64,000 nucleotides of DNA from an uncultured Verrucomicrobiota bacterium (GTDB taxonomy: Bacteria; Verrucomicrobiota; Kiritimatiellia; RFP12; UBA1067): contig CAMAHK010000003.1 of NCBI GenBank assembly GCA_945834475.1, positions 900 to 64,899 on the forward strand, in the 5' to 3' direction. Both the position numbers and the translations under genes were made by a program. Every line of letters begins with the position of its first letter. The first letter of the stretch is position 1. The notes under the pieces are model-generated. The model did not search any database, had not been told where the DNA came from, and saw only the letters and a program-made list of their open reading frames with translations. Positions 6,082-46,776 of this stretch are shown piece by piece.

Positions 6082-7555
6082 TCTTCTCCTCTTCAGAAAT
6101 CAAATTCGTACCGTCGTGCGTCCCCGCCGACGGCGCGGTAACAGCCGCAACCTCAGTCTCCTCCGTTTCAGCGCCGCGGGCGAGACGCACCGCGGTACGG
6201 TCTTCGGCCTTCCGCTTCTTCCACTGCGGACCGTACTTCGGATTCTTCTCGACAGCCGAGTAGACGCCGTTCGTAAACGAGACCGCATGACCCGTCGAGA
6301 CGAGCCACTGGAGGTGCTTCTCAAAGTCCGCAATCTCCGCCGGGAACTCCGACTTGTCAAGGCACGGATGCGCATCGAGATACTTCGAAACGGCCGCGAG
6401 CTCGGGAATCGCGTGCTCGGCGTCAAACGGCTTCAATTCGGCCGCGACGACAAACTCGGGACCACGCGCCTCGTTCGCACGGAAGATATTGAGCTTGCGG
6501 TGATGGAATGCGCCGCGGAGAGCGTAGATCATCGCGTACGGTGCGCGGCGTTCGGCCGCAATCGCGTCGTTGACCGCCCAGACGAGCGGCTTCGCCGGCG
6601 ACGTCGCCGCGACGCTCGCCTTGATCATGAGGTGCTTCGGCTTGTCGACAAGCGACGGCAGGACGACACGCTTGAACTCGCCCTCGGCCTGTTCACGCGT
6701 CAGTTGCGCCGCGCCTTCGGTCTCGGCCTCGCCCTTGTGGAAGAAGACCGTCTTCTTGACCGCGCTCGCCCGCCACGCTTCGATGGACTCCGTATCCCGC
6801 ACCATCTCGATGCGGGAGCGATAGTCCGCCTCGGACATGTTCGGATACTTCGTGCGGATCATCTTCTTGACGACCGCGTTGAACTCATGGATGTTCGGCG
6901 GCCCCAAGAGGATGCCCGAAAGCCCGCACTTCGCGACGCACGTGAAATTGCCCTTCGGCGGCTCGCAGTCGATCTCCTTCGCATCGTAGTACTCGCCGAG
7001 ATGCGCCGAGAGGACGTGTTCGAGAACATCCTCTTCCTTCGTGGACGCAAAACCGCAGACTTTACACTGATAAAAAGAGGTTGAGGTCGAAGGTTGAGGT
7101 TGAGAACCCTGTGGAGCCTTAGGAGAAATCTTCAGGAGGATCGACTCGGGATTGTCGAGGAAGAAGTACGCGAGGTCCTTGAGCTTGTACGCGTGCGTGT
7201 CGCCCTGGATCTTGCGGATGATCGTGCCAAGCGCCTTCGTCTCGGGCAGGATCTTCACTTCGCACGCGAGCGGCTGCGGCTTCTCGAAACTCGGACGGTC
7301 GAAGCGCGGCTTATCGCCAAAAGACTTGCGCGGACGGTCCCCCATCGGCTTGCGCTCGCCAAAGGGCTTTCGGCCCTCGCCAAAGTTCCGACGCGGCTTG
7401 TCGCCACCGCCAAAACCCGAACGCGGCCGATCGTCCTCAACGCGTCCACGGCCGCCCTCGACCGTGACCTTCTCGTCTTTCTTGGCCCAAGCCGGCGTAA
7501 AGTCAAACGCCCCCAGAGAACCCAAGTCAATCGCATTAGTCTTTTCTTCGCTCAT
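6050..7555 (-). CDS. Hypothetical protein with an Arg/Gly/Pro-rich N-terminus and one classical C2H2 zinc finger
   Basis: I prefer the internal ATG at 7555 (MSEEKTNAIDL). The RG-rich stretch reads GGGDKPRRNFGEGRKPFGERKPMGDRPRKSFGDKPRFDRP. The finger is YQCKVCGFASTKEEDVLEHVLSAH (about 7001-7066). The 3' end overlaps the pheT start by about 30 nt. Confidence 0.7.
   Translation of the reverse strand: MSEEKTNAIDLGSLGAFDFTPAWAKKDEKVTVEGGRGRVEDDRPRSGFGGGDKPRRNFGEGRKPFGERKPMGDRPRKSFGDKPRFDRPSFEKPQPLACEVKILPETKALGTIIRKIQGDTHAYKLKDLAYFFLDNPESILLKISPKAPQGSQPQPSTSTSFYQCKVCGFASTKEEDVLEHVLSAHLGEYYDAKEIDCEPPKGNFTCVAKCGLSGILLGPPNIHEFNAVVKKMIRTKYPNMSEADYRSRIEMVRDTESIEAWRASAVKKTVFFHKGEAETEGAAQLTREQAEGEFKRVVLPSLVDKPKHLMIKASVAATSPAKPLVWAVNDAIAAERRAPYAMIYALRGAFHHRKLNIFRANEARGPEFVVAAELKPFDAEHAIPELAAVSKYLDAHPCLDKSEFPAEIADFEKHLQWLVSTGHAVSFTNGVYSAVEKNPKYGPQWKKRKAEDRTAVRLARGAETEETEVAAVTAPSAGTHDGTNLISEEEKNDEVAPVVAE
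6108..6198. repeat. Class-1 palindromic element, 91-bp doublet (in the C2H2 protein gene)
   Basis: GTACCGTCGTGCGTCCCCGCC ... GCCGCGGGCGAGACGCACCGCGGTAC. The spacer (GGCGCGGTAACAGCCG ... CTCCGTTTCAGCGCC) resembles the spacer of the 92-bp subfamily. It is translated as RTAVRLARGAETEETEVAAVTAPSAGTHDGT. Confidence 0.8.
7077..7104. repeat. GAGGTT-type simple repeat inside the C2H2 protein gene
   Basis: GAGGTTGAGGTCGAAGGTTGAGGTTGAG on the plus strand, translated on the minus strand as QPQPSTSTS. Confidence 0.7.
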
Positions 7556-10921: not shown

Positions 10922-13900
10922 GCCAGACGCGGAGAAGTTCCGAGTCGCTCCAGGCCTGAGCCGTGCAGCCCTTCTGGGCATGCGGCGCATCGCCGTCGGC
11001 GTTCTCGCTCACGTGACAGAGACAGCCCGCGTTGACGTTCTCGACGGCCGTCGCGAGAAGCTGCAGCGCAACCTCCTTCGAACAGCTCTTCGTCATCGCC
11101 AGGGCCTCCGCATAGAGCGGGAACGGCCACGCCCAGATCGTCCCGTTGTGATACGCGGGCTTCCGGCATGTGTCCTCGTCGCCCGCATAGACGCCGCGAT
11201 ACATCGGATGCTCCGCGTTGAGCGAACGGACTCCGCCCGGCACGAGCAGTTCCTCGGTCGCCGCGAGGATCGACTTGTCGTCGAGCACGCCCAGCGTGAT
11301 GAGAAAGAGCTGGTTCGGACGGATCGTGTCCTCCGGCTTCGCCAAAGCCGCAGGCTCCCCATTCGGTGCCGCGAGACAATCGTAGTACCCCGTACCGCGG
11401 TGCGTCTCGCCCGCGGCGTCTCCAAGCCCCTCTCCCCCAACCTTGAAATACTTCGTGACGCTGGCCAGCGCCTTCTCGGCGAGTTCCGTGCGTCCGAGGA
11501 AGCGAAGCGCCGAGATCCAGAGCGCCTGAATCTCGACCGGATACCCGATGCGCGGCGTACAGGCTGGATAGTTCGTATCCATCCACGTGAAGTGCGACGG
11601 CGACCAGATCAGCGCCGACTCCGGATCCATGTGAATCCCGTTCGGCGTCCCCGAGATGTAATGGTCGACAATCGACTCGCAAGTCTTTTTGAGCGTGGAT
11701 ATAGTACCCGGCGTGACCTCACGCCGAGGCGTGGTATCAGCCGACTGACTCAAGGCTTCCGTGTCAGCGCCACGGCGTGAGGTCACGCCGGGTACTTGAG
11801 ACACCTCTTGCACACAGCGGATGAACCAGAGCTGGGCGTCGGTCGTGTCGCGGTTGCCGGCCGTCTTGCCGTAGATGATGTTGGGAAGCGTCCCGTTCTC
11901 CTCGAACGCGGCGAACGCCTGAAGGATGCGCACGGAGTCCTCGATCTTCCCCGCGGCAATCATACCGCGCATGAAGATGAACGTGTCGCGTCCCCAGTCG
12001 AGGAACCACGGATACCCCGCGATCACGGTTTTCAAATCATCGCGTTTGACAATGAAGAGGTCCAGCGACTGCGCGAGCGCAGTCGCAAAAGACACCGTAC
12101 CGCGAGCGGCCTTCGGCTGCGTCGCTTCGCTCGGCTGTTTCTCGGCCGCGGCACTCTCCAAGACGCCTGTTGCCACGCCGCCGGCGAGGACGCTCGGCGG
12201 TACGGTGTTCAGCCCCCCTAGTATCTCCGCCGTCTCGCCGACCTTGAGGTCGGCCGAGATCCAGCCGGGCGAATAGAGGTCGCCCGAGCCGTCCTGTCCG
12301 CGCGCCGCCTCCTCGGCGTGCGACACGTTGTAGATCCACTCGGGCTCGTGGTGGTACGCGCCATTGACGACGCGCATCGCGAACGTCTCCCCATACGGCG
12401 CGAAGTCAAACCCCGCCGACGTACCCGCAGCCGTACCGCGGTGCGTCTCGCCCGAACAGCCGAGCGAAGCGAGACAGCCGCAGGCCGCGTCTCCAAGCCC
12501 ATCCCCGTTACCCGCCGCGGGCGAGACGCACCGCGGTACGGTTTTCTCCCTGAACAGCCCTTCCGCCCCACCATACGCCTTCGTCGTCGCATGGAAGCTG
12601 CGCCATTCGATGTCGGGACGGAACACAAGGCGAACCTGATCGCCGACATCGTCCTCGCCTGCGTCGCCGCGCGTCACGGTAAGCCGCGCGACATTGCCCT
12701 TCTCCAGCGCGAGTGTGAACGCAAAGGCAGTCTCACGGCCCATGCCGCACGGCACACGGAAGTCCCACGTCGCGAAGCGTCCCGCCGGATCGGCCGTAAA
12801 GCGCGTCACACACTTCATGTCGAGTTCGCGCACATAGCCCTCGCGCTGCAGCCAGCACCGTGTGCGCGCCCAGAGGTTGAGACGGTCGGACGGTACATCG
12901 GGATTCGGATTCGCCGCGAGCGTCGCGTCGTACTGGCTCGCAATCGAGCCCCAGGCGACGCGCAGCTGCGCCGCGGCCCCCTCGCCGTTCGAGAGGATCG
13001 TGCGCATCAGCGGATTCTTGCGCACCTCCTCACCCATCAGCGACAGCTTCACCTTCGCCTGACGCGAGCGCGGCGGGATCAAGAGTTCGGAGACCGTCCG
13101 CGTCGTCGCATGCGCGGCATAGACCGTCATTTTGAAGACCAGTCGCCGACACGCCGTGCCGTCGCCCTTATAGTGCGGCGCGTCAAAGGTAATGAGGTTG
13201 AGGTTAGAGGTTGAGAGATTGGTTGAAGACGAGAGGTTGGCGGGGACGGAGCGATAGGCGCGGATCGTCTTGCCGGTCGCCGGATCGACAATCTCGAGGC
13301 GGAAACGATGCGGCGCCGAAACCTCCAGAAGCTGGTTCTCCGGCACGCAGACCTGCCGCCGCGCGTCCCGCGGATACACCCAATGGAAGGTGTGACGAGT
13401 ACCCGGCGTGACCTCACGCCGAGGCGCGGTAACAGCCGACTGACTCAAGACCTCCGTGTCAGCGCCACGGCGTGAGGTCACGCCGGGTACTTCTTCCACG
13501 CACAGCACTTCGCCCGGCTTGAGGAACTCCTTGCCCGACAGGTAGCGCCGTTCTCCCGTGATGAGATCGGTGACCTCACCCCCCGGGAACTTCGCGGCGT
13601 CCCACGCGATCGTCGCGCCATTGGCGCAGTCGAGATTGGCGAGAATGAGAACCTTGTCAGCGCCTGTCGCCGAGACGGCGACGGTACGGACGACGGCAAG
13701 CGTATTACCCTCGCCGCGCGTCACGACCTCGAGGTGACTCGCGTTCGCGAAGCTCGGATGTGTCGAGAGAATCGCATTGAGCCGCGAAATGAGCGGCACC
13801 ATGTTGTTGGACGCGCCCCAGTTGAGGTCGTTCTTGCCGTGGACGTCGATCTTCTCGGTCGCGTACCACTCGACGCCATTCGCCATACCCCACGCGCCCT

Positions 13901-15165: not shown

Positions 15166-16119
15166 TTATTGCCAAAGGGATTTGAGATAGGCGAGGCCTG
15201 CGGCGAGTTCGGGTTCGGTGATGCCGGCGTGGGGTTCGAAAACGATGTGGCGCACCGTTTCGGCAAGCGGTTTCAGCGCGGCAAAATCGACCTTGCCCTG
15301 TCCCGGCGCGAGATGGTCATCGCCTCCGACCGAGTCGTTGATGTGCAAGCCCAACACCGTACCGTCCAGCCCCGTACCGCGAGCGGCCTTCGGCTGCGTC
15401 GCTTCGCTCGGCTGTTTCTCGGCCGCGGCGTCTCCAAGCTCCCCCGTACCAGCACCGCGGGCGAGGACGCTCCGCGGTACGAAGTTATGCCGAACAAAGT
15501 CATGCCCCGTGTCAAACCAGGGCTTCACCCAGTCGCCGCAAAGCTGACCGATCTCCCATTCGGCGGGGAAGCCCTCGAGATACGGCAGGTTCTCGAGCCC
15601 GAGCGTCACCTTGTTCGCCTCGAGGTCAGGCACAAGCGCGGCGAGTTCCTTCTTCGCAATGTCAATCATCTTGAGGCCGCGCTTCACGCGGCGACTGAAG
15701 TCCCAACGCGAGAAGCACCCGCGGCACATCACACGGCCGAGATGCAGGACAAGCGCGTCGGCCCCCATCTCCGCAGCAAAGCGGATGTTCTTGCGAATCT
15801 GGAACTGAGCCATCTTCCGCGCCTCCTCGTCGAACGAGGCGAGGTGGTAAAGTTCGGGATACCCCTGCGGTGCGGAAATCGGGACGGGACAAAATGCGTG
15901 CACAGACCCGACAGGCATCTCATCGAGCCGCGCCTTGAAGCCCTTCACTTGGAAATCCGTCGTATGGAAGCCGAGCTCCAACGCCTTGAACCCCAGACGG
16001 AGCGCCATATCGACAATCTCCTCCCCGGACTCCAGACGCCGATTGCACCAATTAGTCGAGAGCGCGAACGTCGCGCTCCACCGATTAATCGTCCCATTCG
16101 TCTTCCCGCTTTCTGTCAT
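15166..16119 (-). CDS. Sugar phosphate isomerase/epimerase (xylose isomerase-like TIM barrel)
   Basis: 317-aa ORF with ALELGFH ... ADALVLHLGRV ... LGLENLPY pattern. It carries a 107-bp repeat element at 15374-15480. Confidence 0.75.
   Translation of the reverse strand: MTESGKTNGTINRWSATFALSTNWCNRRLESGEEIVDMALRLGFKALELGFHTTDFQVKGFKARLDEMPVGSVHAFCPVPISAPQGYPELYHLASFDEEARKMAQFQIRKNIRFAAEMGADALVLHLGRVMCRGCFSRWDFSRRVKRGLKMIDIAKKELAALVPDLEANKVTLGLENLPYLEGFPAEWEIGQLCGDWVKPWFDTGHDFVRHNFVPRSVLARGAGTGELGDAAAEKQPSEATQPKAARGTGLDGTVLGLHINDSVGGDDHLAPGQGKVDFAALKPLAETVRHIVFEPHAGITEPELAAGLAYLKSLWQ
15374..15480. repeat. Class-1 element, 107-bp doublet, type 2 (in the TIM-barrel isomerase gene)
   Basis: It has the same GTACC...GGTAC termini and the same internal module as 12097-12203. 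It is translated as VPRSVLARGAGTGELGDAAAEKQPSEATQPKAARGT. Confidence 0.9.
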
Positions 16120-32168: not shown

Positions 32169-33139
32169 AACCCCATCAGCTTTTTCGCCGCCGCAAATTG
32201 CGCGGACAGATCGACCTTGCGCGATCCGTCGACATAGCCGTCAGCGCGCAAGTTCTCGACGAAGCGACGAAACTTGTGCGAACCCGGATTCAAGTTGTCG
32301 AGCGCCACAACCTCGGCCGAACCAAAGGTACAGGCCTCCGAGAGCATCCCCGTCGACTCGGCCGTCACGTAAAGCCGCTTCGCGAGTTTCACGAACGCCG
32401 GAATCGGATTGAAATGATCCTTCGAATAGAGAAGCTTGTAGTCCCACGGATACGAGTCGATCAGCGCCTCGATCTCCGGCGGCGTCCGGCGCGAGGTTGT
32501 GACACAACGGAGAATTGGCGAATTGCCGAATTGGCGAATTGCCGAATCGGCGAAGATTGCATCCAATTCGCGTTTCATCCAGTCGACGGACATCGTCGAG
32601 CACTTATTGGGGCCGCCGACGATCACGGCGACGAGCGGACGCGCCGCGACCTGGTCGGCGGTGAAGCCGCTGTGGTTGTAGAACGCCGCGACGCCCTTCT
32701 CGTAGAACGCCGCATCGGCCGCGACGAGGTTCGCCGGAATCTCGATCACGTTCGGCGCCGCCGCGGGACGGTCGAACGCCGGCGCGAGCACGCAGTCGAA
32801 CGACGCGATGTCATACCCGCGCGGATAGAGAACGGCGCCGCACGTGACGCCCAGCTTCTTCGCCAGCGCCTTCGCGGCATAGAAGGTTCCCGACCCGGTG
32901 CCGATCACGGCGACAAACGCCGTACTGCGGCGCGTCTCGCCCGCGACGCTCTCCCACCCCCTCACCAGACCAAGCGCCCTAATGCCCAGGCGGTCGCACG
33001 CATACGAGAGCGCCTTGTGGAACTTGGACTTGAACTGCACGGGAACGATCTCGAACTCACAACCAAGCGCACGGGCAAAGGCCTTGGACTGGTTTTCGTG
33101 TCCGGCCTTGCCGTCAGTCAGAATCAGAACCTTAGACAT
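32165..33139 (-). CDS. ELM1/DUF1022-family protein (putative glycosyltransferase-like)
   Basis: I prefer the ATG at 33139 (MSKVLILTDGKAGHENQSKAFARALG). The track start is 33157. It contains the octamer-repeat insertion at 32511-32560. The family call is from memory. Confidence 0.65.
   Translation of the reverse strand: MSKVLILTDGKAGHENQSKAFARALGCEFEIVPVQFKSKFHKALSYACDRLGIRALGLVRGWESVAGETRRSTAFVAVIGTGSGTFYAAKALAKKLGVTCGAVLYPRGYDIASFDCVLAPAFDRPAAAPNVIEIPANLVAADAAFYEKGVAAFYNHSGFTADQVAARPLVAVIVGGPNKCSTMSVDWMKRELDAIFADSAIRQFGNSPILRCVTTSRRTPPEIEALIDSYPWDYKLLYSKDHFNPIPAFVKLAKRLYVTAESTGMLSEACTFGSAEVVALDNLNPGSHKFRRFVENLRADGYVDGSRKVDLSAQFAAAKKLMGL
32511..32560. repeat. Octamer tandem array (AATTGGCG/AATTGCCG)n (in the ELM1-like gene)
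   Basis: AGAATTGGCGAATTGCCGAATTGGCGAATTGCCGAATCGGCGAAGATTGC with 8-nt periodicity. It is translated as IFADSAIRQFGNSPILR. Confidence 0.85.
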
Positions 33140-40970: not shown

Positions 40971-41007
40971 CAGTATGTTCCCTTTATGGTTATTCGTGTT
41001 TCAAAAC

Positions 41008-41751
41008 TCAAGGCTTGAAATAAAGGCGGCAGTGACAGAGTCCATGGTAGTTTGGATCTCGGAGCTGGCCCTTGAACTCGTCGCAGGGGCAGAAGAACTC
41101 CGGCAGTTTCTGCAGCCGGCACGGACAGAACGCGTTCTTGCGCACGACGCCCTGCCGCACCATCGCCGCGAGCTTCGCGTCTGGATTGAGCGTCACGCCG
41201 TTCTTCGCAAAAAGCTCACGGATCTCCGTTGACGACTCCTTCGTCCGGGGATACGCCTTAAACGTCACCAGCTTCTTCAGCTCGTCAATGTCCTTCCACT
41301 TCGGCAGTCCCTCGACCGAGTCCTCGCCGATGATTAAGTAGAGGTGGAGAGAAGAGGTGGAGGTGGACAAAGGAGCATATTCTTCCTTGATTTCCCGCAC
41401 GGTGTCGATCGTGTACGAGACGCCGCCGCGCTTCAACTCGCGGTCGTCGACCACCACGCGCGGATCGTCGGCAAACGCCGCCTTCACCAGCTCCAGCCGA
41501 TCCCAGGGGAACTCCGTACCGCGGCCCGCGGCGTTGTCTTCCGTACCGCGGTGCGTCTCGCCCGCGGCGTCACCAAGCCCGCTGTTACCCGCCGCGGGCG
41601 GGACGCACCGCGGTACGGTCTTGAACGGACTCACGTTCGCCGGAATGACGATGAGCTTATCGAGCTTCAGCTCCTCAAGCGCCTTGCGGGCGACCGTCAG
41701 ATGCCCGAAGTGAATCGGATTGAAGCTTCCCCCGTAAATGCCAATGTTCAT
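41008..41751 (-). CDS. nadD: Nicotinate-nucleotide adenylyltransferase fused to a C-terminal ferredoxin:thioredoxin-reductase-catalytic-subunit-like Cys motif
   Basis: I prefer the ATG at 41751 (MNIGIYGGSFNPIHFGHL). It has ESSTEIR (ISSTxIR-like). The C-terminal part is FCPCRLQKLPEFFCPCDEFKGQLRDPNYHGLCHCRLYF (41029-41127). It carries two repeat insertions. Confidence 0.85.
   Translation of the reverse strand: MNIGIYGGSFNPIHFGHLTVARKALEELKLDKLIVIPANVSPFKTVPRCVPPAAGNSGLGDAAGETHRGTEDNAAGRGTEFPWDRLELVKAAFADDPRVVVDDRELKRGGVSYTIDTVREIKEEYAPLSTSTSSLHLYLIIGEDSVEGLPKWKDIDELKKLVTFKAYPRTKESSTEIRELFAKNGVTLNPDAKLAAMVRQGVVRKNAFCPCRLQKLPEFFCPCDEFKGQLRDPNYHGLCHCRLYFKP
41338..41368. repeat. GAGGTGGA-type simple repeat inside nadD
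   Basis: GTAGAGGTGGAGAGAAGAGGTGGAGGTGGAC on the plus strand, translated as STSTSSLHLY. Confidence 0.7.
41516..41616. repeat. Class-1 element, composite of about 101 bp (in nadD)
   Basis: GTACCGCGGCCCGCGGCGTTGTCTTCC + GTACCGCGGTGCGTCTCGCCCGCGGCGTCACCAAGCCCGCTGTTACCCGCCGCGGGCGGGACGCACCGCGGTAC. It is translated as VPRCVPPAAGNSGLGDAAGETHRGTEDNAAGRGT. Confidence 0.9.
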
Positions 41752-41767
41752 ACGCCAATCTCCTCGT

Positions 41768-41785
41768 TCTCCACCTCTACACGGC
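41768..41785. repeat. 18-mer GCCGTGTAGAGGTGGAGA (reverse orientation) just upstream of the nadD ATG
   Basis: The same 18-mer occurs at 60226-60243 inside the FAD oxidoreductase gene. Confidence 0.7.
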
Positions 41786-41793
41786 CCCAAAGC

Positions 41794-42586: not shown

Positions 42587-42622
42587 GCAATTCGCCAATT
42601 CGTCAATTCGTCAATTCGCCAA
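42587..42622. repeat. Octamer tandem array (GCCAATTC/GTCAATTC)n, intergenic between the S1 gene stop and the proC start
   Basis: GCAATTCGCCAATTCGTCAATTCGTCAATTCGCCAA is the reverse complement of the unit at 32511. Confidence 0.85.
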
Positions 42623-43408
42623 TTACAACTTATCAAACGCTCCCGTCCCGAAGCCCGCGTTCTTCTTCGCGTTGTCCTTCATCCACGCGGCGACCTCCTC
42701 GGCGGACTTCGCGGCCGCCTCGTCCTCGGGCGTACGCCTGAACGTCCGCGCCATGCACTCCTTGCGCGAAAGCGTCACCTTGCCCTCCTCGCGGTCGATG
42801 TGCAGGATCTTCACCGTAATCGCATCGCCGCTCTTGAGAATCGTGTTGAGGTCGTCGACGCGCTCCCACGCGACTTCACGCGCGGGGACGAGTCCCTCGA
42901 CGCCGCCGAGGTCGACGAACGCGCCGAAGTTCATGACGCGCGTCACCGTGCCGTTCAGCGTCTCGCCTTCGGTGAGCTCGTTGAGGACGGCCTCCTTGAG
43001 CGCCTCGGCCTGGAGCTCCAGGAGCTGACGGCGAGAGACGACGACGTTGAGTCCGCGGTCGTCGACCGAGTAATCGGTGACGAGAAACTCGAACTTGCGT
43101 CCGACGTACTCCGCGGCGTCCTTCTTGAACTTGTCGATCTGGCTAAAGGGACAGAACGCGCGCTGGCCGGCGATCGTCACTTCGTAACCGCCCTTCGTCT
43201 CCTTGTCGACGACGCCCGCAATCGCCTCGCCCTGCTCGAACGCCGTCTTGATCGCCGCGTTGTCATTCGAGTCGACGACGAGCGTCTTCTTCTCGGGGCG
43301 CACGAGGGACTTGTCCTCGTTGAACGCCTTGCCGAACTTGTAACCCTTGCGGATGCCGCCGAACTGAGCGTCAAGCATCGCACCGAAATCGAAAGAATTA
43401 TTATCCAT
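42623..43408 (-). CDS. S1 RNA-binding domain protein (two S1 repeats)
   Basis: GEAIAGVVDKETKGGYEVTIAGQRAFCPFSQ and GETLNGTVTRVMNFGAFVDLGGVEGLVP S1 signatures. Confidence 0.8.
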   Translation of the reverse strand: MDNNSFDFGAMLDAQFGGIRKGYKFGKAFNEDKSLVRPEKKTLVVDSNDNAAIKTAFEQGEAIAGVVDKETKGGYEVTIAGQRAFCPFSQIDKFKKDAAEYVGRKFEFLVTDYSVDDRGLNVVVSRRQLLELQAEALKEAVLNELTEGETLNGTVTRVMNFGAFVDLGGVEGLVPAREVAWERVDDLNTILKSGDAITVKILHIDREEGKVTLSRKECMARTFRRTPEDEAAAKSAEEVAAWMKDNAKKNAGFGTGAFDKL

Positions 43409-44949: not shown

Positions 44950-46755
44950 TCAGATATGCGCCGGCGTCTCAATGCCCAGAAGTCCGAGCCCCGTCTTCAG
45001 CACGTTGCCGAAAAGCGCACAGAGATGGAGTCGCGCGTTCTTCACGGACTCTTCGCTCTTTAGGATCGGCGAATTCTGGTAGAACGAGCTGTAGAGCTGC
45101 GCCGTCTGGAAGAGATAGTCCGCCAAGACGGACGGCTTGTACGCCTCCGCCGCACGAACGACCGCCCCCGGAAATTCCAGAAGCTGCAGCGCCAAACGCT
45201 TCTCCGACGGCGTCGTCACCGCGAATGCTCCCGTACCGCGGTGCGTCTCGCCCGCGGCGCTGGCCAGCCTGCTGTTACCCGCCGCGGCCGAGGGCGGCTC
45301 GCGGTACGTTCCCGCCTTCTCTAGGAGCGAGCAGACGCGCGCGTACGCGTACTGCAGGTACGGACCCGAGTTGCCCTCGAGCGCCAGCGCCTTGTCCCAG
45401 CTGAAGTCGATGTCGGTAATCGGATCGTGCGAGAGATCCGTGTACTTCACCGCGCCATACCCAATCGCCTCCGCCAACGCATCATTCCCCGTACCGTCGC
45501 TGTCCTCAGCGACAGGCGCGGTAACCGCAACCCCACCCGCCGGCTGCTGACGCGACTCGACGATCGCCAGCGACCGCTTCTTCGCCTCGGCGAGCAGCTC
45601 GTCGAGCTTGATGAGGTTGCCCTCGCGCGTCGAGATCGCCTTGCCCTGGAAGCTCATGAGCCCGAACGGCACGTGCACAAGCTTCGCCGTGACACCCATC
45701 TTGCCCGCGATATTGAACCACTGCTTGAAATGGAGCTGCTGACGCGCATCCGTCACGTAAATGATGCGCTCGGGATCGTATTCCTTCACGCGCATCTCGA
45801 CGCACGCAAGATCGCTCGTCGTGTAGTTGAAACCGCCGTCCGACTTGCGGACGATTGCGACGCCGAGTTTCTCCTCTTCGAGATTGACGACAAGCGCCCC
45901 TTCGGACTCGACGGCAAGGCCCATCTCCTGCAAACGCTTCACGACGCCCGGCATCGTGTCGTTATAGTACGACTCGCCGCGGTAGGTGTCGAACTTGACG
46001 CCCAACTTCGCGTACATGCGGTTGAACTCGGCGATTGAAATGTCGATAAACTTCCTCCAGAGCGCCAGGTTGTCGGGATCGCCCTGCTGGAGCTTCACGA
46101 GCTCCGCCTTGCAGGACTCCTTCCAGACGCCGTCCTCTTCCTTGGCCTTCGCCGCCGAAAGGACATAGCACTTCTCGAGATACGGCACCGAGAGGTTGTC
46201 GCGCTCCTCCTGCGTGAGAAGCTCGCGGTAGCCCTTGATGAGGATGCCGAACTGCGTGCCCCAGTCGCCGAGATGGTTGTCGGCGATGACCTCGTAGCCG
46301 AGCGAACGGAAGATGCGGTCGATCGCATTGCCGATCACCGTCGAGCGGATGTGGCCGATGTGCATCTGCTTGGCCGCATTCGGGGACGAGTAGTCGATGA
46401 CGATCTTCTTGCCCGCGCCGGACTGCGGAATGCCGCACTTCGACTGCGCGTTCAGCGTGGTCAGCTGGGCGTTGAGCCAGTCCGTCGAAACCGTCAGGTT
46501 AAGGAAGCCGGGCCCCGCGATCTCGACCTTCGCAAACGGGGAAGCGACGTCCACGTCGCTTGTAGGAAGACAAGCCACCACCTTCGCGGCGACCTCGCGC
46601 GGATTCGCGCGGAATTTCTTCGACAGCTTCAGCGCGTCGTTGCATTGGTAATCGCCAAACTTGGGGTCAGTCGCGGGGAGGACGCGGACAAACGAAAAGT
46701 CCTCGCCCGGGTACGCCTTCTCAAAGGCGGCCTTGATAATGTCTGTGAGTTCCAT
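44950..46755 (-). CDS. argS: Arginine--tRNA ligase
   Basis: 601 aa with SPNAAKQMHIGH (HIGH) and a C-terminal DALR anticodon-binding domain. It carries a 75-bp repeat insertion at 45233-45307. Confidence 0.97.
   Translation of the reverse strand: MELTDIIKAAFEKAYPGEDFSFVRVLPATDPKFGDYQCNDALKLSKKFRANPREVAAKVVACLPTSDVDVASPFAKVEIAGPGFLNLTVSTDWLNAQLTTLNAQSKCGIPQSGAGKKIVIDYSSPNAAKQMHIGHIRSTVIGNAIDRIFRSLGYEVIADNHLGDWGTQFGILIKGYRELLTQEERDNLSVPYLEKCYVLSAAKAKEEDGVWKESCKAELVKLQQGDPDNLALWRKFIDISIAEFNRMYAKLGVKFDTYRGESYYNDTMPGVVKRLQEMGLAVESEGALVVNLEEEKLGVAIVRKSDGGFNYTTSDLACVEMRVKEYDPERIIYVTDARQQLHFKQWFNIAGKMGVTAKLVHVPFGLMSFQGKAISTREGNLIKLDELLAEAKKRSLAIVESRQQPAGGVAVTAPVAEDSDGTGNDALAEAIGYGAVKYTDLSHDPITDIDFSWDKALALEGNSGPYLQYAYARVCSLLEKAGTYREPPSAAAGNSRLASAAGETHRGTGAFAVTTPSEKRLALQLLEFPGAVVRAAEAYKPSVLADYLFQTAQLYSSFYQNSPILKSEESVKNARLHLCALFGNVLKTGLGLLGIETPAHI
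45233..45307. repeat. Class-1 element, 75-bp doublet (in argS)
   Basis: GTACCGCGGTGCGTCTCGCCCGCGGC ... GCCGCGGCCGAGGGCGGCTCGCGGTAC, translated as YREPPSAAAGNSRLASAAGETHRGT. Confidence 0.9.
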
Positions 46756-46767
46756 AACTAGTTGAAT

Positions 46768-46776
46768 ATTCTATCA
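46768..46776 (-). promoter_or_regulatory. Extended -10 box TGATAGAAT, 12 nt upstream of the argS ATG, overlapping the dus stop codon
   Basis: The minus strand reads TGATAGAATATTCAACTAGTT-ATG. Confidence 0.45.

Follow-up and report, generated by a model that had tools for sequence, protein, structure and literature searches.

The Fusion Gene and Its Reading Frame

The window analyzed here is a stretch of 64,000 nucleotides from an uncultured Kiritimatiellia bacterium (contig CAMAHK010000003.1 of assembly GCA_945834475.1, positions 900 to 64,899), and the gene under consideration is situated on its - strand at 41008..41751. The 247-residue product comprises a nicotinate-nucleotide adenylyltransferase (NadD) domain (residues 1-183, 41203..41751), which is followed by a minimal module (residues 184-247, 64 amino acids, 41011..41202) related to the catalytic chain (FTRc) of ferredoxin:thioredoxin reductase (FTR) and to ferredoxin:disulfide reductase (FDR). 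That the fusion exists is confirmed; it is transcribed, and it is conserved among the Kiritimatiellia of animal guts. FTR, FDR and NadD are well known individually; what we rate as new is the domain architecture, together with a distinct minimal subfamily of the FTRc/FDR fold.

The open reading frame (ORF) listed for the - strand covers 41008..41790 and extends to a TTG at 41790. The homologues all begin with MxIGIYGGSF and the gene from 41751 begins with MNIGIYGG, so the real start is almost certainly the ATG at 41751, from which the residues are numbered here; the stop codon occupies 41008-41010. The C-terminal sequence of the ORF reads ...ESSTEIRELFAKNGVTLNPDAKLAAMVRQGVVRKNAFCPCRLQKLPEFFCPCDEFKGQLRDPNYHGLCHCRLYFKP*, given also as ...YPRTKESSTEIRELFAKNGVTLNPDAKLAAMVRQGVVRKNAFCPCRLQKLPEFFCPCDEFKGQLRDPNYHGLCHCRLYFKP. 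Reading of the translation confirmed the cysteine pattern described in the initial annotation, in which CPC-x9-CPC-x15-CHC follows the NadD core and the first and last cysteines delimit a span of 33 residues (41127..41029).

We considered, and rejected as having a probability close to nil, the possibility that nadD and a small downstream FTR-like gene were joined only by an error of assembly or sequencing (a frameshift or a chimera). Contigs from two RNA and two DNA runs, all four independent and from pig gut, cover the region 41000-41566 with 0 gaps, the identical architecture is found in 70 genome loci and in 120 of the 120 protein clusters among the matches listed, and the junction is read through continuously in all fusion sequences compared. 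The concern that two genes had been merged by a frameshift is therefore answered by the gap-free contigs across the junction and by the agreement of the 70 related loci. A 901-base stretch is present in many pig-gut runs, metatranscriptomes among them. The sole irregularity is that contigs break at 41540-41620, within the NadD part and away from the junction, on account of a high-copy repeat located there.

The NadD Domain

The assignment of the N-terminal domain is supported by matches to PF01467 (5.7e-19, 69.1 bits against a cut-off of 21) and TIGR00482 (115.7 bits against a cut-off of 112.45), by NadD sequences of the PDB at E values of 1e-19 to 1e-27, and by a Foldseek search with the full-length AlphaFold model, which retrieves NadD structures at an E value of 2e-11. 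The (H/T)xGH nucleotidyltransferase motif, GGSFNPIHFGH (residues 7-17, 41701..41733, - strand), is invariant in 67 sequences, and the Trp of GEDSVEGLPxW is also invariant in the homologue alignment. ESSTEIR (residues 172-178, 41218..41238, - strand) is the equivalent of the NadD motif ISSTxIR for binding of the ATP phosphates; it aligns with PEIDISSTKIR of 8AIH and PRVDISSTMIR of 2H29, and Ser173, Ser174, Ile177 and Arg178 are invariant. As part of the overall explanation that we favor, the gene product is tentatively predicted, with slightly less than even confidence, to be a functional adenylyltransferase for nicotinate mononucleotide (NaMN).

The domain is trimmed toward its C-terminus. Compared with canonical NadD, the whole fusion family lacks approximately 17 residues between the last strand and the SST motif, and the gene considered here also lacks the final NadD helix (LVPxAVxxFI). 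The fusions fall into two subtypes, since the 17-residue C-terminal helix of NadD is kept in 16 of the 70 fusion loci (L045, L049, L051, L052, L054 and L057-L067) and lost in the remaining 54, the window gene being of the latter kind. The helix-keeping subtype reads ...SSTEVRRRIAAGEPIDDIVPEAVALFLKH-module and contains the segment RRIAAGEPIDDxVPEAVA. In the 54 fusions without the helix, the module directly abuts the SSTEIR helix and no linker intervenes. The full-length AlphaFold2 (AF2) model is compact, with a predicted local distance difference test score (pLDDT) of 82 and a predicted template modelling score (pTM) of 0.79; the pLDDT of the module amounts to 92-96.

The trimming of NadD, with the ~17 residues ahead of the SST motif absent throughout and the last helix absent in most members, would also suit a structural metal-binding cap, namely a Cys6His module that carries Zn or a non-redox Fe-S center, takes the place of the missing C-terminal subdomain in the folding or oligomerization of NadD, and has no redox function. 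The confident packing of the module in the AF2 model and the weakness of its fold similarity to FDR point in the same direction. Nevertheless, the 16 fusions with a complete NadD C-terminus still carry the module, and it is therefore an addition rather than a replacement. The exact catalytic signature of FTR (CPCR, CPC, and CHC with a hydrophobic/aromatic tail) is moreover invariant, and the module also occurs as an autonomous protein beside thioredoxin. We consequently consider a purely structural cap improbable.

No cysteine is conserved at any column of the NadD domain among 59 full-length fusions, which excludes a classical regulatory disulfide of the thioredoxin type in the enzyme domain. 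Redox control of NaMN adenylylation, as proposed in the initial annotation, is something that we infer, and it cannot act through such a disulfide in NadD.

The FTR-Like Module

The module contains three C-x-C motifs, all of them 100% conserved and located on the - strand: the first CPC (Cys209 and Cys211, 41119..41127), the second CPC (Cys221 and Cys223, 41083..41091), and CHC (Cys239-His240-Cys241, 41029..41037). The alignment with FTR suggests that the first motif supplies a cluster ligand and an exposed redox-active cysteine, that the second supplies two cluster ligands, and that the third would provide a cluster ligand, the catalytic histidine, and the second redox-active cysteine.

A search against the Pfam family FeThRed_B (PF02943), which had been put forward as a check on the FTR-like assignment, returned a match above the curated cut-off of 22 bits, although a marginal one, the whole protein scoring 22.6 bits and its last 85 amino acids 24.3 bits. 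The family is matched by 18 of 18 diverse aligned module sequences (best E value 4.7e-6), the module covering approximately positions 10-87 of its 106. Some relatives of the module score just under the cut-off, at 18.4-21.1 bits, and PF02943 accordingly appears on only a minority of family members in precomputed annotations. Against the sequences of the PDB, phmmer with the module finds 4TPU only (E value 0.004), all three C-x-C motifs being aligned, and a profile built from the module alignment likewise finds 4TPU only (E value 0.011). Neither phmmer nor the profile gave a direct match to the classical FTRc chains in the PDB, which were reached by profile-profile comparison. In hhalign, the module alignment matches the 4TPU core with a probability of 94.5%, a profile of 25 FDR-type proteins with 96.4% (E value 1.4e-9), and the catalytic chain of chloroplast FTR (7BZK) with 83.4% (E value 8.5e-6); for scale, the FDR profile itself matches classical FTRc only at E values of 1e-6 to 3e-4. 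The six cysteines are aligned in every one of these comparisons, and against FTRc the histidine and the tail are aligned as well (CHCMLFL with CHCRLYF), in keeping with the likeness remarked on at the outset. In Foldseek searches with the module, FDR structures (4TPU at the top, then 7PWE) are the sole matches at a probability above 0.5; they are weak, and the fold comparison is no more than compatible with the homology.

These comparisons establish from sequence profiles, which support the homology well, that the module is a true but distant, minimal homologue of FTRc and FDR. The six cysteines, the histidine of CHC and the arginine of CPCR are retained. Neither in the ORF nor in the 10 neighboring genes scanned was a partner found, be it the variable subunit of FTR or the rubredoxin domain or C-terminal extension of FDR. 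The plant motif given in the initial annotation, CPC-x16-CPC-x8-CHC followed by MLFL, is correct as read from the 7bzk_A alignment. The FTR-like character of the C-terminal module also holds by hhalign and PF02943, with the amendment that the nearest solved relatives are archaeal and bacterial FDRs (4TPU, 7PWE) rather than plant FTR, and that the module is a trimmed core devoid of partner domains. Neither classical spacing, CPC-x16-CPC-x8-CHC of FTR or CPC-x14-CPC-x12-CYC of FDR, is matched; x9/x15 is found throughout the mini-module family.

In the 59 full-length fusions the six cysteines are 100% conserved, and the mean pairwise identity amounts to 85% in the cysteine core versus ~70% in NadD. 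Such a cysteine pattern lies far outside chance expectation. Judged by these alignments, selection constrains the module more strongly than it does the enzyme domain.

We also note sequence variation among the reads. Run X4 carries a G>A variant at 41089, within the second CPC, which is synonymous (TGC to TGT). In the C-terminal RLYFKP, the codon at 41017-41019 specifies Phe in the window and Leu in the closest homologues, and the same run carries a Leu variant (41019 A>G).

Distribution and Gene Neighborhood

The protein database contains more than 100 clusters of the fusion with 59-99% identity and 94-97% query coverage, ranging from 208 to 248 amino acids except for a triple fusion of 387 amino acids (P0116), in which Pfam identifies Sua5/YrdC, NadD and the module. 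The core FCPCRLxKxPEFFCPCDEFKxQ...HGxCHCRLYxKP is invariant in these clusters. In a genome scan with one genome per species, 279 loci with the module were detected and 80 were kept, of which 70 are full-length NadD fusions and 10 carry the module alone. The 70 fusion loci are nearly all labelled Kiritimatiellia (or by the old names 'Verrucomicrobia' and 'Lentisphaerae') and originate from rumen, pig, horse, and human gut. The suggestion that the fusion be sought in related genomes is thus answered by the 70 loci and the more than 100 protein clusters.

The window gene follows proC, which is a neighbor in 31 related loci and is the sole recurrent one. The other neighbors are housekeeping genes: argS, an ABC ATPase, trkA, an S1-domain protein, and a DUF1080-type gene (3-keto-disaccharide hydrolase family). 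Neither a classic thioredoxin motif nor a classic ferredoxin motif was found in the window. The 70 fusion loci likewise show no thioredoxin motif; ferredoxin-type cysteine motifs occur in two of them (L051 and L054). The absence of an adjacent thioredoxin gene from the window and the 70 loci argues against a simple operonic role as a thioredoxin reductase here. Scans with Rfam and for promoters and terminators returned nothing informative.

One locus, L071 (5806-6207 of DFGB01000051.1), holds a partial duplicate of the last ~80 codons of the fusion, comprising the C-terminal helix and the module at ~96% identity. The intact fusion gene of L057 lies ~8.5 kb away, and the reading frame upstream of the duplicate is unrelated. 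Either a fragment of the gene or a duplication introduced by assembly could account for it.

Stand-Alone Modules and Other Fusions

When 1.84 billion representative proteins were searched with the 64 residues of the module (E value at most 0.001), a family of 333 clusters at 50% identity emerged, most of which are small proteins of 64-130 amino acids. The typical member is a stand-alone protein of 66 amino acids from gut Clostridia, e.g. MAVRFNEDAEIVAKIKEGLKRKDGYCPCRLPKLPEFKCICQEFKDQIADPEFEGYCHCRLYYKSKD, in which the x9/x15 spacing is observed. These proteins (e.g. P0294) share that spacing and 51-53% identity with the window module; they differ from it in being autonomous and in having CIC or CMC rather than CPC as the second motif. 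The NCBI and JGI pipelines name them 'ferredoxin thioredoxin reductase catalytic beta chain', which is an automatic annotation only, and no experimental work on the 66-residue mini proteins was found in the literature.

The stand-alone gene is situated 13-22 nt after a thioredoxin gene in several Clostridia lineages (L072 5671-6198; L079 5658-6195; L081-L084 3676-4201) and 5 nt before one in a metagenome-assembled genome of Lentisphaeria (L075 ~1010-1542); the stand-alone forms at these pairs comprise 66-71 amino acids. At L085-L088 the stand-alone gene has no thioredoxin neighbor. A stand-alone module and its thioredoxin may constitute an unrecognized, very small ferredoxin-dependent thioredoxin reductase pair in gut Clostridia. 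The mini-module family would also offer a minimal model of the unusual chemistry between cluster and disulfide in FTR. The module is also found at the C-terminus of an acyl-ACP thioesterase (P0139, 278 amino acids) and of a cyclic nucleotide monophosphate-binding, Crp-like protein (P0262, 209 amino acids).

This adjacency to thioredoxin, 13-22 nt in Clostridia and 5 nt in the Lentisphaeria genome, bears on the main rival explanation, in which the module is a tethered ferredoxin:disulfide reductase that reduces a thioredoxin-like protein in trans with electrons drawn from ferredoxin, and NadD is an unregulated scaffold, comparable to the variable subunit of FTR or the FDR dimer. The explanation is consistent with all that is known of the family as well as with the thioredoxin adjacency of the free form. 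Every characterized homologue reduces thioredoxin-like proteins (PMC6262447; Wei et al. 2015, cited through PMC11846895), the catalytic histidine and the CPCR arginine are kept in the module, and 7PWE offers a precedent of an FDR domain fused to its own partner. However, a tethered reductase leaves unexplained the choice of NadD as carrier and its retention across a whole class. None of the fusion loci is adjoined by a thioredoxin gene, the module is also joined to unrelated enzymes, and most members have lost the linker helix, which suggests a tight coupling to the NadD fold. On balance a tethered reductase appears unlikely, though distinctly less so than a structural cap.

Proposed Function: A Built-In Redox Switch

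The explanation that we favor overall, with somewhat less than even confidence, is a NadD whose shortened C-terminal helical end runs directly into a 64-residue minimal Fe-S/disulfide center of the FTR/FDR type. From the alignment with FTR and FDR and from what is established for FTR, Cys209, Cys221, Cys223 and Cys239 would hold a [4Fe-4S] cluster, Cys211 and Cys241 would form a redox-active disulfide beside it, and reduced ferredoxin would be the electron donor. The cluster and disulfide of FTR are reportedly described by Dai et al. 2000. Because the module is attached without a linker to the SSTEIR helix that binds the ATP phosphates, its reduced/oxidized or holo/apo state would set the activity of NadD. 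Synthesis of the nicotinamide adenine dinucleotide (NAD) pool of a strict anaerobe would thereby be tied to the redox state of ferredoxin and thiols or to its exposure to oxygen.

A redox or cluster-integrity switch built into NadD is put forward as the most likely role of the module, one that we hold a little more loosely than the explanation as a whole. The switch is favored by the loss of the linker, the higher conservation of the module, its presence on unrelated enzymes, and the lack of an adjacent thioredoxin gene. Within NAD synthesis, the disulfide of quinolinate synthase NadA of E. coli is a precedent for control by redox state. As to the physiological rationale, it is a speculation that a fermenter tunes its NAD pool to the redox state of ferredoxin, or that exposure to oxygen shuts off NAD synthesis.

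Several points weigh against such a switch. The lack of a conserved cysteine in the NadD domain deprives it of a classical target disulfide. Any regulation would have to proceed by conformational change, a mode without known precedent among FTR-type domains. The Pfam match only just passes the cut-off, and the loops differ in length from those of both FTR and FDR. The characterized relatives, furthermore, are all catalytic disulfide reductases that act on thioredoxin-like proteins (PMC6262447, PMC7278568).

A broader proposal is that the 62-64-residue module represents the smallest self-contained [4Fe-4S]/disulfide center of the FTR type, acting as a portable allosteric redox sensor that switches the fused enzyme (NadD, acyl-ACP thioesterase, Crp-like) in response to reduced ferredoxin or to oxygen damage of the cluster, directly and without thioredoxin as an intermediary. 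This generalization is unlikely; if it is true, the redox state of ferredoxin sets the size of the NAD pool in gut Kiritimatiellia.

NadD is an essential housekeeping enzyme that is normally unregulated and is a drug target. If the built-in switch does gate its activity, the module would provide a direct link from the ferredoxin/thiol redox state or oxygen exposure to the synthesis of the NAD pool in strict gut anaerobes.

Palindromic Repeats Within nadD and Elsewhere in the Window

The nadD gene contains in frame a doublet resembling repetitive extragenic palindromic (REP) elements at 41539..41620, recognized by a spike in read depth and by the repeat families D1, D2, D4 and I25. The doublet consists of two inverted copies, which encode most of a disordered loop of 35 residues (TVPRCVPPAAGNSGLGDAAGETHRGTEDNAAGRGTEF); the pLDDT is below 50 at residues 43-79 of the AF2 model, and the loop corresponds to an alignment gap in most homologues. 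In contigs from pig-gut metagenomes the read depth rises from ~10 to 1000-6000x at 41516-41626 and the contigs break there, on account of the REP-like palindromic unit CCGTACCGCGGTGCGTCTCGCCCGCGGCG. This repeat core is present in 13 copies in the window, in both orientations.

The same doublet occurs in frame in argS (45228-45310; argS ORF 44953-46770, - strand), where it adds ...AAGNSRLASAAGETHRGT... relative to a homologue of 72% identity. Both in-frame doublets add ...AAGNSxLxxAAGETHRGT... as a disordered loop, and both genes are essential. Rickettsia palindromic elements are found inside coding genes, and the in-gene REP-like repeat resembles them by analogy. Other copies are located at 6172, 11390, 12431, 12513, 23880, 32920, 36783, 47496, 47535, and 47574.

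The window further contains a 95-nt internally palindromic repeat (11703-11797 and 13398-13492, the copies being 96% identical), a 58-nt exact repeat (12095-12152 and 15372-15429), and a short-period repeat of the AATTGGCGAATTGCCG type (32509-32547 and 42587-42624), one copy of which lies between proC and the gene of the S1-domain protein.

Comparison with Known Systems

Fusions of nicotinamide/nicotinate mononucleotide adenylyltransferases (NMNAT) are known in the NadD-YqeK type PRK07152, in NadR, and in NadM-Nudix. No description of an Fe-S or thiol-redox domain, FTR-like domains included, on any NadD or NMNAT was found in the literature, and the surmise of the initial annotation that the fusion is uncharacterized agrees with our searches on the fusion itself and on FTR-like/FDR domain fusions. 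With canonical bacterial NadD (PDB 1KAM, 8AIH, 2H29, 1YUL) the gene product has in common GxFxPxHxGH, SSTxIR, the Trp of GEDS..LP.W, and the Rossmann-like fold. It differs in lacking the ~17 residues before SST and the last helix, and in carrying an Fe-S-type domain.

The FDR of Methanosarcina acetivorans (4TPU) and its relatives are the best match to the module in sequence and profile, and the best, though a weak one, in fold. In addition to the six aligned cysteines, a common start, LNPD...G(Y/F)CPCRL, and a common end, C-x-C-x-LY, are observed. In contrast to the module, FDR has the spacing CPC-x14-CPC-x12-CYC, with Tyr in place of His, and possesses ~25 more N-terminal and ~30 more C-terminal residues; 4TPU contains a rubredoxin domain as well. 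The module has only 64 amino acids, x9/x15 loops and CHC, and is joined to NadD. FDR is a [4Fe-4S] enzyme that reduces a thioredoxin-like protein with ferredoxin (PMC6262447, PMC7278568).

Similar features connect the module with FTRc of plant chloroplasts, namely CPC...CPC...CHC with the histidine, the arginine of CPCR, the hydrophobic tail, and a span of 33 residues between the first and last cysteines in both. The spacing of FTRc is x16/x8, and FTRc requires the variable subunit. Relative to both FDR and FTRc, the first loop of the module is shorter and the second longer, and the N- and C-terminal extensions are absent. The glutaredoxin-FDR fusion of Desulfotalea psychrophila (7PWE), the second-best Foldseek match, provides the precedent for an FDR-type center as a fusion domain. 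In 7PWE the partner is an N-terminal glutaredoxin domain, the presumed redox substrate, whereas in the fusion described here the partner is a non-redox nucleotidyltransferase.

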